A stretch of DNA of 14,098 nucleotides from a virus. Each line of letters starts with the position of its first letter. The first letter of the stretch is position 1. The stretch lies in the UHGV virus genome UHGV-2186863. One strand, 5' to 3'. A program made the translations under genes and the position numbers. The notes under the pieces are model-generated. The model saw nothing but the letters and a program-made list of their open reading frames with translations. It was not told where the DNA came from and made no database searches. Below are positions 1 to 748 of the stretch, one piece after another.

Positions 1-702
1 TGTTGCAGCAGCCGCAGCATCAATCTTGTCGGTACGCGTGGTCAGTTCACCAAGATTTTTCTTCTGCGCTTCAAGCTCGCCTTTCTGAGCTTCAAGCTTG
101 CCTTTCTGAGCTTCAAGCTCATTCGCAACAATGGTGGAGTTGGCGGACTCCCATGCCAGATAGCGCTGTAAAGGCATGTATTCTTTTATTTCACTCGAAT
201 CTGCTGCCACATTTCCATTCTCATCCAGGCCGACGTTGGTTTTCATCTGCTGGATTGCTGAAACGCGGTTGTACAGGTCACGGATATTCTGTTCTGTCAG
301 TAAATCTCCGTCATTAAATGTAAATTTCCCTGATGCCGCAGCCTTTGATGCCGCAGCCTTCATGAAATCATGAACTTCTTTATCATAAACAGTAAATGTT
401 GTTGATCCATCCGCGGAGGTAATTGTAACATTACCATTGCCATCTATTTTACTGAGAAGTGGAATCGGCTTATTTCGCTCTTTTTTCACATAACCTAACT
501 TACCCCAGTCAATATGCGCCGTATCATTATTTTTATTATAAAATATTTTAAAAACATCCCCATGTTGTTTATTGTCTTTACCTTTTAAGGCAGAATAACT
601 ATCCTCGACGACGACATCAGCAGCCATAATATCAAAGCTAACCCCAAACAAAACACCTGCCATTGCCGCAGACAAAACAGTCTTTGCTAACTTCTTGCTC
701 AT
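1..702 (-). CDS. exported coiled-coil protein, N-terminal 234 codons (3' end lies beyond window start); candidate prophage moron
   Basis: Hand translation of the minus strand from ATG at 702..700 is open to position 1 with no stop (not in the ORF track because the stop is outside the window). Starts MSKKLAKTVLSAAMAGVLFGVSFDIMA-ADVV, a typical Sec signal peptide. Beta-rich middle, then perfect heptads LEAQKGK/LEAQKGE/LEAQKKN. Possible AGGG ribosome-binding site 8 nt upstream. Function not recognised. Confidence 0.7.
   Translation of the reverse strand, partial: MSKKLAKTVLSAAMAGVLFGVSFDIMAADVVVEDSYSALKGKDNKQHGDVFKIFYNKNNDTAHIDWGKLGYVKKERNKPIPLLSKIDGNGNVTITSADGSTTFTVYDKEVHDFMKAAASKAAASGKFTFNDGDLLTEQNIRDLYNRVSAIQQMKTNVGLDENGNVAADSSEIKEYMPLQRYLAWESANSTIVANELEAQKGKLEAQKGELEAQKKNLGELTTRTDKIDAAAAAT
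61..120 (-). repeat. 21-bp tandem repeat (two full copies at 70-90 and 91-111 plus a 9-bp partial copy) encoding the coiled-coil heptads
   Basis: ttcaagctcgcctttctgagc / ttcaagcttgcctttctgagc / ttcaagctc read directly; one mismatch between full copies. Confidence 0.8.
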
Positions 703-719
703 GTGGTATACCCTATAAA

Positions 720-748
720 ATTATCTGTATACAAATAAAACAGTTCAA
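720..748 (-). promoter_or_regulatory. candidate sigma70 promoter for the exported-protein gene
   Basis: Minus strand reads TTGAAC (743-748) - 17 nt - GATAAT (720-725), ending 17 nt upstream of the ATG at 702; AT-rich surroundings. Confidence 0.35.

Follow-up and report, generated by a model that had tools for sequence, protein, structure and literature searches.

At one end of a phage-derived contig, downstream of the tail fibre genes, lies a gene which runs off the available sequence, and the question raised by this locus is whether such a gene serves the phage particle or alters the surface of the lysogen, and to which family its product belongs. A preliminary description, made from the nucleotide sequence, had regarded the gene as a candidate moron for lysogenic conversion which encodes an exported coiled-coil protein, had assigned it to no known family, and had found neither the head repeats of YadA and Eib proteins nor a likeness to Lom or Bor. 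It had also proposed that the reading frame be extended and searched for a C-terminal anchor, that the structure of the product be predicted and that its distribution across prophages be determined. The window, by which we mean the whole stretch of DNA that was analysed, comprises 14,098 nucleotides of the virus genome UHGV-2186863.

Genomic context of the locus

The prophage from which the window derives is short-tailed and Stx-phage-like; its late region, which the window represents, has all genes on the minus strand. These genes are, in order, an Rz-like spanin (13492-13959), the small terminase (12339-13190), the large terminase (10652-12358), the portal (8508-10652), an N4-gp56-type capsid (6106-7320), four open reading frames for virion proteins (3950-6051), a collagen-like tail fibre (1974-3953; PHROG 366 at 1e-162, with G-X-Y repeats in the translation) and a DUF4376 or tail-fibre-assembly-like gene (approximately 1376-1957; PHROG 1141 at 4.5e-73, in line with the annotation of the related loci L006 and L007), the stop codon of which is hidden in a run of N at 1358-1418. 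The closest backbones belong to chromosomal prophages of E. coli and to phage PhiR5_2 (98-99% identity), followed by many Stx-converting phages at approximately 90%.

The tail fibre consists mostly of Gly-X-Y repeats arranged in two blocks, which explain a local GC content of 0.60-0.71, and it fits the collagen-like proteins reported from prophages of pathogenic E. coli (PMC3368898). Its similarity to different phages changes at approximately 2440 and 2913: orf-401 of P-EibA and SW070917 match only 2440/2456-2913 and again from approximately 1717/2503 downwards, while L006 is 99.6% identical from 2440 upwards. Positions ~2440 and ~2913 are mosaic junctions common to lambda-like and Stx-phage-like prophages.

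At the edge of the window a minus-strand reading frame extends from an ATG at 702-700 through 234 codons without a stop down to position 1, thus occupying 1-702 and representing approximately 60% of the roughly 400 codons expected. As the preliminary description had stated, this frame was missing from the list of open reading frames, because that list omits frames which run off the end, and the stop of this one lies outside the window. A Shine-Dalgarno-like AGGG (711-714, minus strand) can be read from the sequence 8 nt before the ATG. The earlier observation of an AT-rich stretch apart from GC-richer structural genes was likewise borne out, with a GC content of 0.425 for the fragment and 0.371 for the adjoining spacer (703-1330) as against 0.50-0.605 for the structural genes (terminase, portal, capsid and tail fibre), and a GC3 of 0.39 for the fragment as against 0.47-0.62.

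Two runs of N, at 833-907 (75 bases) and 1358-1418 (61 bases), give rise to artefactual open reading frames in this part of the window. A 162-aa plus-strand frame at 773-1261 was rejected as a product of the masking, as it reads through the first of these runs and as unmasked relatives hold only a 26-aa frame, and a frame at 1331-2083 extends past the DUF4376 gene at both ends.

Assignment of the truncated gene to the Eib family

We are highly confident that positions 1-702 of the minus strand constitute the 5′ portion of an eib gene of the eibA type, which specifies a prophage-borne immunoglobulin-binding trimeric autotransporter (type Vc) of E. coli. A tblastn search against phage records returned a single match, to eibA of P-EibA (from strain ECOR-9, AF151091), with 78.5% identity over residues 1-228 (E=1e-104); identity to EibA amounted to 83% in a multiple alignment, and ranged from 78 to 86% for proteins of the EibA cluster. 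This similarity to a characterised Eib protein along the passenger places the fragment, as judged from sequence, within the Eib family. A search of a large protein collection identified 238 relatives, every one from E. coli, with labels that read 'YadA C-terminal domain-containing protein' or, in some cases, 'Immunoglobulin-binding protein from prophage P-EibA'. The best of these relatives (P0001 and P0002) are 97% identical, 396-400 aa in length and equipped with the Pfam YadA anchor PF03895 (7.8e-17 in P0002), while a metagenome contig (L008) carries a 98.3% nucleotide-identical allele with a complete 402-aa open reading frame, the same anchor in its protein and a terminator-like hairpin after the frame. 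The view that the gene belongs to no known family can thus be abandoned in favour of an EibA-type Eib, at 78.5% identity to eibA and 97-98% to full-length Eib relatives.

The recognisable parts of the protein lie beyond the window, in a segment that corresponds to the C-terminal portion of the relatives. There, full-length relatives match the solved EibD structures (2xqh at 1.4e-31 and 2xzr at 5.8e-27) and the YadA anchor 2lme (1.4e-18), and they are identical to the solved EibD stalk over the segment GAIDGRV...NENHKEMK. The extension of the frame that had been proposed therefore leads, through near-identical relatives, to an EibD-type stalk followed by a YadA anchor. Given relatives at 97-98% identity, the present copy would be expected to possess the same saddle, EibD-like stalk and membrane anchor, and when intact it would run for approximately 165 further codons and end in ...DGDASWNVGVNFEF-stop (NVGVNFEF-stop).

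As these parts lie just beyond the window, profile searches miss the fragment: when the 234 residues were searched against Pfam, NCBIfam and PDB sequences, only sub-threshold noise resulted, without a Pfam match to a YadA head or neck, or to Lom or Bor (in agreement with the preliminary description), and without a PDB sequence match to the EibD head. Among the sub-threshold matches, DUF4073, DUF3839, HrpB7 and aRib (13.9 bits against a cut-off of 27) were dismissed as noise; the resemblance to aRib (atypical Rib) recurred in the search of representative proteins, as weak matches to giant Gram-positive surface proteins that are insufficient for homology. A Foldseek comparison of the AlphaFold2 model, a monomer model of an obligate trimer with a mean pLDDT of 62.7, to the PDB gave nothing below E=0.1, an outcome that carries little weight for such a model. 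The family of the N-terminal domain is very narrow: of the 1.84 billion proteins searched, only 4 representative clusters score below E=1e-10.

Domain organisation of the encoded protein

The product begins with MSKKLAKTVLSAAMAGVLFGVSFDIMA followed by AD, and residues 1 to approximately 27/28 (619-702, minus strand) are predicted to form a Sec signal peptide that ends with MSKKLAKTVLSAAMAGVLFGVSFDIMA before the next alanine. The n-region contains three lysines, the hydrophobic core spans residues 8-23 (Kyte-Doolittle 7-residue means of 1.2-2.4), and small residues make up a cleavage motif that reads I-M-A / M-A-A. M1, S2, K3, K4, K7, L10, S11, A13, A15 and G16 are invariant, even in proteins of which the passenger is only 25-27% identical. 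The signal peptide claimed in the preliminary description is confirmed as a prediction, on the basis of sequence, the charge and hydropathy profile and the conserved N-terminus, and such a peptide is what would be expected at the start of a type Vc trimeric autotransporter adhesin.

The signal peptide is followed by the Eib N-terminal domain (NTD, or 'Eib region'; residues 29-190, positions 133-618, minus strand), which represents the allele-specific, variable head of the adhesin. In the AlphaFold2 monomer this domain, with a pLDDT of 70-82 over residues 50-180, adopts a mixed alpha/beta fold with strands at residues 33-37, 51-56, 61-66, 91-95, 102-106, 156-159 and 174-177, helices at 108-124, 137-152 and 178-188, and a hairpin at 156-177. 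A domain of roughly 130 residues rich in beta structure had been anticipated; a globular domain is indeed present, but it is mixed alpha/beta and not simply beta-rich. The published AlphaFold2 model of the EibA NTD comprises an antiparallel sheet packed by two helices, plus a hairpin (PMC12511318), with which our model of the window NTD agrees, in favour of an EibA-type protein.

The stalk starts with a left-handed, heptad coiled coil at residues 191-234 (1-132, minus strand), as evidenced by its heptad register and predicted helix. Residues 194-217 are made up of three exact tandem 7-residue units, LEAQKGx, in which position a is always Leu and position d is Gln; the coiled-coil periodicity is therefore a perfect heptad, as had been described, with a partly polar core. 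The AlphaFold2 model places a helix at 195-233 with low confidence, and in relatives the stalk continues in EibD-like form, as is typical for the coiled-coil stalk of a type Vc adhesin. Both in the alignment and in the AlphaFold2 model the NTD passes straight into this coiled coil, and a YadA-like beta-roll head or neck is absent between NTD and stalk. EibA is known to lack the YadA-like head and neck, unlike EibC/D/G, its 'Eib region' sitting directly on a stalk of which the N-terminal half is a left-handed (heptad) coiled coil (PMC7568254; PMC12511318). The absence of YadA/Eib head repeats, correctly recorded in the preliminary description, is hence a known trait of EibA (PMC7568254; PMC12511318), and it is because EibA is devoid of a YadA-like head or neck that the Eib family was overlooked.

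Two tandem repeats were identified by Tandem Repeats Finder within the fragment. A 21-bp repeat at 62-120 (2.8 copies, 92% matches) encodes the three LEAQKGx units, of which P0002 holds two, and a 15-bp repeat at 331-360 (2 copies) encodes AASKA-AASKA in a loop of the NTD, a unit that is present three times in P0001, about once in P0010 and twice in the window. The copy numbers of both repeats thus vary among alleles that are otherwise 97% identical (P0001, P0002, P0010 and L008), which suggests slippage-driven changes in length of the stalk and of the head-domain loop.

The immunoglobulin-binding part of the protein is not within the window, and this would suit a trimeric autotransporter of the recently described, chain-forming ClaA/ClaB kind, which would mediate aggregation or adhesion only; Eib-like prophage adhesins without IgG Fc binding do exist (PMC13534694). 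We consider this very unlikely for the present gene, as ClaA and ClaB share less than 50% similarity with Eib proteins and occur in other genomic contexts (PMC13534694), whereas the fragment is 78-86% identical to EibA-cluster proteins and in all of its close relatives the stalk is identical to the one solved for EibD.

The eib slot and its upstream module

The order tail fibre, DUF4376 gene, conserved spacer and eib is the same in P-EibA and in six other loci, and the tail fibre, DUF4376 gene and spacer of the window are 97-99% identical to those of other eib loci. The downstream genes can be read from relatives: an ORF-156/ORF-60 pair after eib was confirmed in P-EibA, L006 and L007, and in L002 only a gene of ORF-156 size was seen. 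In L006 (20951-23409) and L007 (20800-23259), eib is followed by the ORF-156/ORF-60 homologues and then by genes for an internal virion protein (PHROG 511) and a tail tip fibre. In these closest relatives the eib cassette thus has virion genes on both sides, being inserted within their block.

Such a position among the tail genes, with further virion genes (internal virion protein and tail tip fibre) behind it in the closest relatives, together with the coiled coil, could be taken to mean that the product is itself a virion component, such as a tail fibre or spike subunit. A predicted Sec signal peptide and a base composition unlike that of the virion genes speak against it, as do the homology to outer-membrane-anchored Eib proteins and the lack of any Pfam match between the fragment and structural protein families, and the probability of this explanation is practically negligible. 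An eib gene carried as a moron is the reading that accommodates these features: the base composition is distinct, a putative promoter precedes the gene, and a terminator-like hairpin follows the stop codon in L008, along with the stem_loop annotated in AF151091. The earlier interpretation as a lysogenic conversion gene is in this respect upheld, the locus comprising a predicted exported coiled-coil surface protein encoded on an AT-rich, self-contained insert after the tail fibre genes.

Upstream of the gene lies a conserved non-coding module, the AT-rich spacer at 703-1375 (minus strand). Across its approximately 680 bp it is 99% identical to P-EibA (98.9%), SW070917, L003 and L004, the four loci aligned, and at 908-1357 only 88-94% identical to L006 and L007, which otherwise represent the closest backbones. 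Rfam recognised no RNA family in the region of L006 that covers the spacer and eib.

The sigma-70-like promoter motif previously reported, TTGAAC-17-GATAAT, is present at 720-748 (minus strand, reading from 748 to 720) and agrees with the consensus at 9 of 12 positions. As a promoter it is putative, since the motif scan places it not above chance, with 2 sites found in 2.2 kb against 4.2 expected from shuffled sequences, and at the usual start spacing it would give a leader of only approximately 11 nt. The motif is retained in all eight eib loci, which cover lambda-like (J, lom, orf-401) and Stx-phage-like backbones, two of them with the variant AATAAT, and its conservation is no greater than that of its surroundings, as approximately 190 bp upstream of the ATG are likewise near-invariant in these eight loci. 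L008, which is outside this set, has a TTGAGC variant.

Some 100 bp ahead of the ATG the module contains two perfectly matched 11-bp arms in inverted orientation, GAAATTCCGAA-N16-TTCGGAATTTC. This inverted repeat was found by a repeat search in the unmasked P-EibA locus; its right arm is located at 806-816 of the window and its left arm would be located at 833-843, within the first run of N. The repeat is present in all eib loci compared and is annotated as a stem_loop (3777-3814) in AF151091 (L001), and could be an insulating hairpin or the binding site of a dimeric regulator.

Also inside the spacer, on the strand opposite to eib, is a 77-aa frame with a hydrophobic stretch (1028-1261, plus strand; 3355-3684, minus strand, in L001). 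It ends in a terminator-like hairpin that is directed away from eib, and a second hairpin directly follows the stop of the DUF4376 gene. The frame had no PHROG match and is probably not coding, as a 115-bp insertion together with a duplication of 11 bp breaks its copy in SCU-104; the stretch could conceivably give rise to an antisense or small RNA instead.

Allelic variation and distribution

Backbones that are 99% identical to the window switch at approximately 676-679, a few codons into the gene, to another eib allele, the passenger of which is only 25-27% identical to that of the window, and all eib alleles regain approximately 98-99% identity 20 nt past the window end. Since the match breaks at approximately 678 and resumes beyond the window, positions 1-678 represent a variable cassette, flanked on one side by the conserved upstream region plus the first 8 codons and on the other by the 3′ block common to all eib alleles. 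Judging from sequence, these conserved flanks would permit the exchange of eib alleles between prophages by homologous recombination. A canonical eibA allele also occurs on a window-like backbone (L005), and the pairing of allele and phage seen here is therefore not new. A search of viral contigs retrieved three related, non-identical loci, and one of metagenome contigs the single 98% identical allele of L008.

Of 5426 complete E. coli genomes, 27 contained the conserved 3′ half of eib, with all copies chromosomal, which supplies the survey of distribution proposed at the outset. A positive genome carries a median of 3 copies and up to 6, and EibA-type heads with at least 80% query coverage were found in 9 genomes. 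These multi-copy genomes echo strain ECOR-9 with its four eib prophage genes (PMC5450701).

The window ends approximately 20 nt before the block common to all eib alleles (position 805 against 824-828 in the reverse complement of L008). As eib genomes carry approximately 3 copies, and as many relatives are partial on contigs of 1-2 kb, the truncation may be an assembly break at a multi-copy repeat. The same observations, namely a window that ends inside the gene just ahead of the common block, the many database relatives labelled 'partial' on short contigs and a copy number which favours assembly breaks and rearrangements, would also be expected of an eib pseudogene or remnant that is disrupted just past the window and gives no anchored protein. 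This is nonetheless improbable: the 234 codons are uninterrupted, with start, Shine-Dalgarno-like sequence and signal peptide intact, alleles of 97-98% identity are complete, and the partial entries are explained by short-read assemblies which break at the multi-copy repeat. It is nevertheless the weightiest of the alternatives, because the 3′ 40% of the gene falls outside the window.

A more far-reaching idea, which we put forward tentatively and judge to be rather unlikely, is that the fragment belongs to a distinct, unnamed EibA sub-allele (its head domain is approximately 80% identical to EibA, with another tip sequence and varying numbers of AASKA and LEAQKGx units), and that the swapping of this cassette across prophage types diversifies self-recognition, or kin-sorting, rather than immunoglobulin binding. 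As a separate point, the near-invariant upstream module with its 11-bp inverted repeat could be targeted by a dedicated regulator such as the IbrAB products. The kin-sorting part of this idea arises from the mutual exclusion of EibA and EibD cells in aggregates (PMC7568254); as to the regulator, the title of reference 174 in PMC8065619 names the IbrAB island as an activator of eib genes.

Proposed function

The mechanism outlined here is derived from homology and from the literature on Eib proteins and YadA. In the lysogen the conserved AT-rich upstream module would drive transcription of the gene as a separate unit. The precursor would be exported by the Sec pathway over the inner membrane and cleaved near Ala27/Ala28, after which three C-terminal YadA-type anchor segments, encoded beyond the window, would assemble into a single outer-membrane beta-barrel by the self-insertion of a type Vc trimer. 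The passenger would leave via this barrel and fold as a lollipop, with the NTD as its tip and the heptad coiled coil as the beginning of a stalk of which the saddle and membrane-proximal coiled coil would follow beyond the window. The resulting protein would bind IgG Fc non-immunely, that is without antigen specificity, and would contribute to serum resistance and clumping. The IgG Fc-binding site is presumably situated on the membrane-proximal stalk segment shared with EibD.

Members of the Eib family bind IgG Fc, IgA or both and render cells resistant to serum, and ECOR-9 produces EibA, C, D and E, with the strongest expression under static conditions (PMC5450701). EibA brings about surface attachment and clumping, and not the formation of chains (PMC7568254, PMC13534694, PMC5450701, PMC12511318).

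Eib proteins act as accessory factors in virulence and colonisation: they capture IgG Fc and IgA irrespective of antigen, increase serum resistance and promote aggregation and biofilm. The spread of eib on prophages is relevant to the typing of LEE-negative STEC and of commensal lineages. Profile searches of Pfam, NCBIfam and the PDB fail to detect the allele-specific part of eib genes, automatic annotation stops at 'YadA C-terminal domain-containing protein', and draft assemblies tend to break within multi-copy eib genes. The locus further illustrates that one prophage slot swaps head-domain alleles between lambda-like and Stx-phage-like backbones. The feature is real but ordinary, as both the type of gene and its location were already known, and the fragment adds nothing fundamentally new.

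Comparison with known systems

The nearest characterised counterpart is EibA of P-EibA (AAF63234, 392 aa), which has the same visible architecture of signal peptide, NTD and heptad coiled coil with no YadA-like head or neck, and of which the gene is preceded by a spacer that is 98.9% identical, a near-identical promoter region and the same DUF4376/ORF-191A neighbour. The two proteins differ at the tip of the NTD, where the window reads DVVVEDSYSALKGKDNKQHGDVF and EibA EQSYSALNAQNGAGSIY, in one extra AASKA unit of the window protein and in the loop at residues 125-133. The backbones differ as well, that of the window being short-tailed and Stx-phage-like with an N4-gp56-type capsid, whereas P-EibA has lambda-like J, lom and orf-401.

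EibC, EibD and EibE, as well as EibG and EibH (EibD structures 2XQH and 2XZR), are members of the same family with the same prophage slot and signal-peptide start, and the full-length relatives of the window gene share with them an identical saddle, left-handed coiled coil and anchor. They differ in having a YadA-like head and neck, of which the window shows none (PMC7568254; PMC12511318), and in forming cell chains, in contrast to EibA, which clumps (PMC12511318). YadA of Yersinia, the prototype trimeric autotransporter, employs the same secretion and anchoring, as reflected by the PF03895 and 2lme matches in relatives; it is plasmid-borne rather than prophage-borne, possesses the head repeats that are absent from the window gene, and binds collagen where Eib proteins bind immunoglobulin. 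The lambda morons lom and bor are likewise late-region prophage genes that are expressed in the lysogen, where they change the surface of the cell and its resistance to serum. The window gene, which has no Pfam match to either family, would resemble these morons in position and effect, and P-EibA carries lom as a gene of its own.
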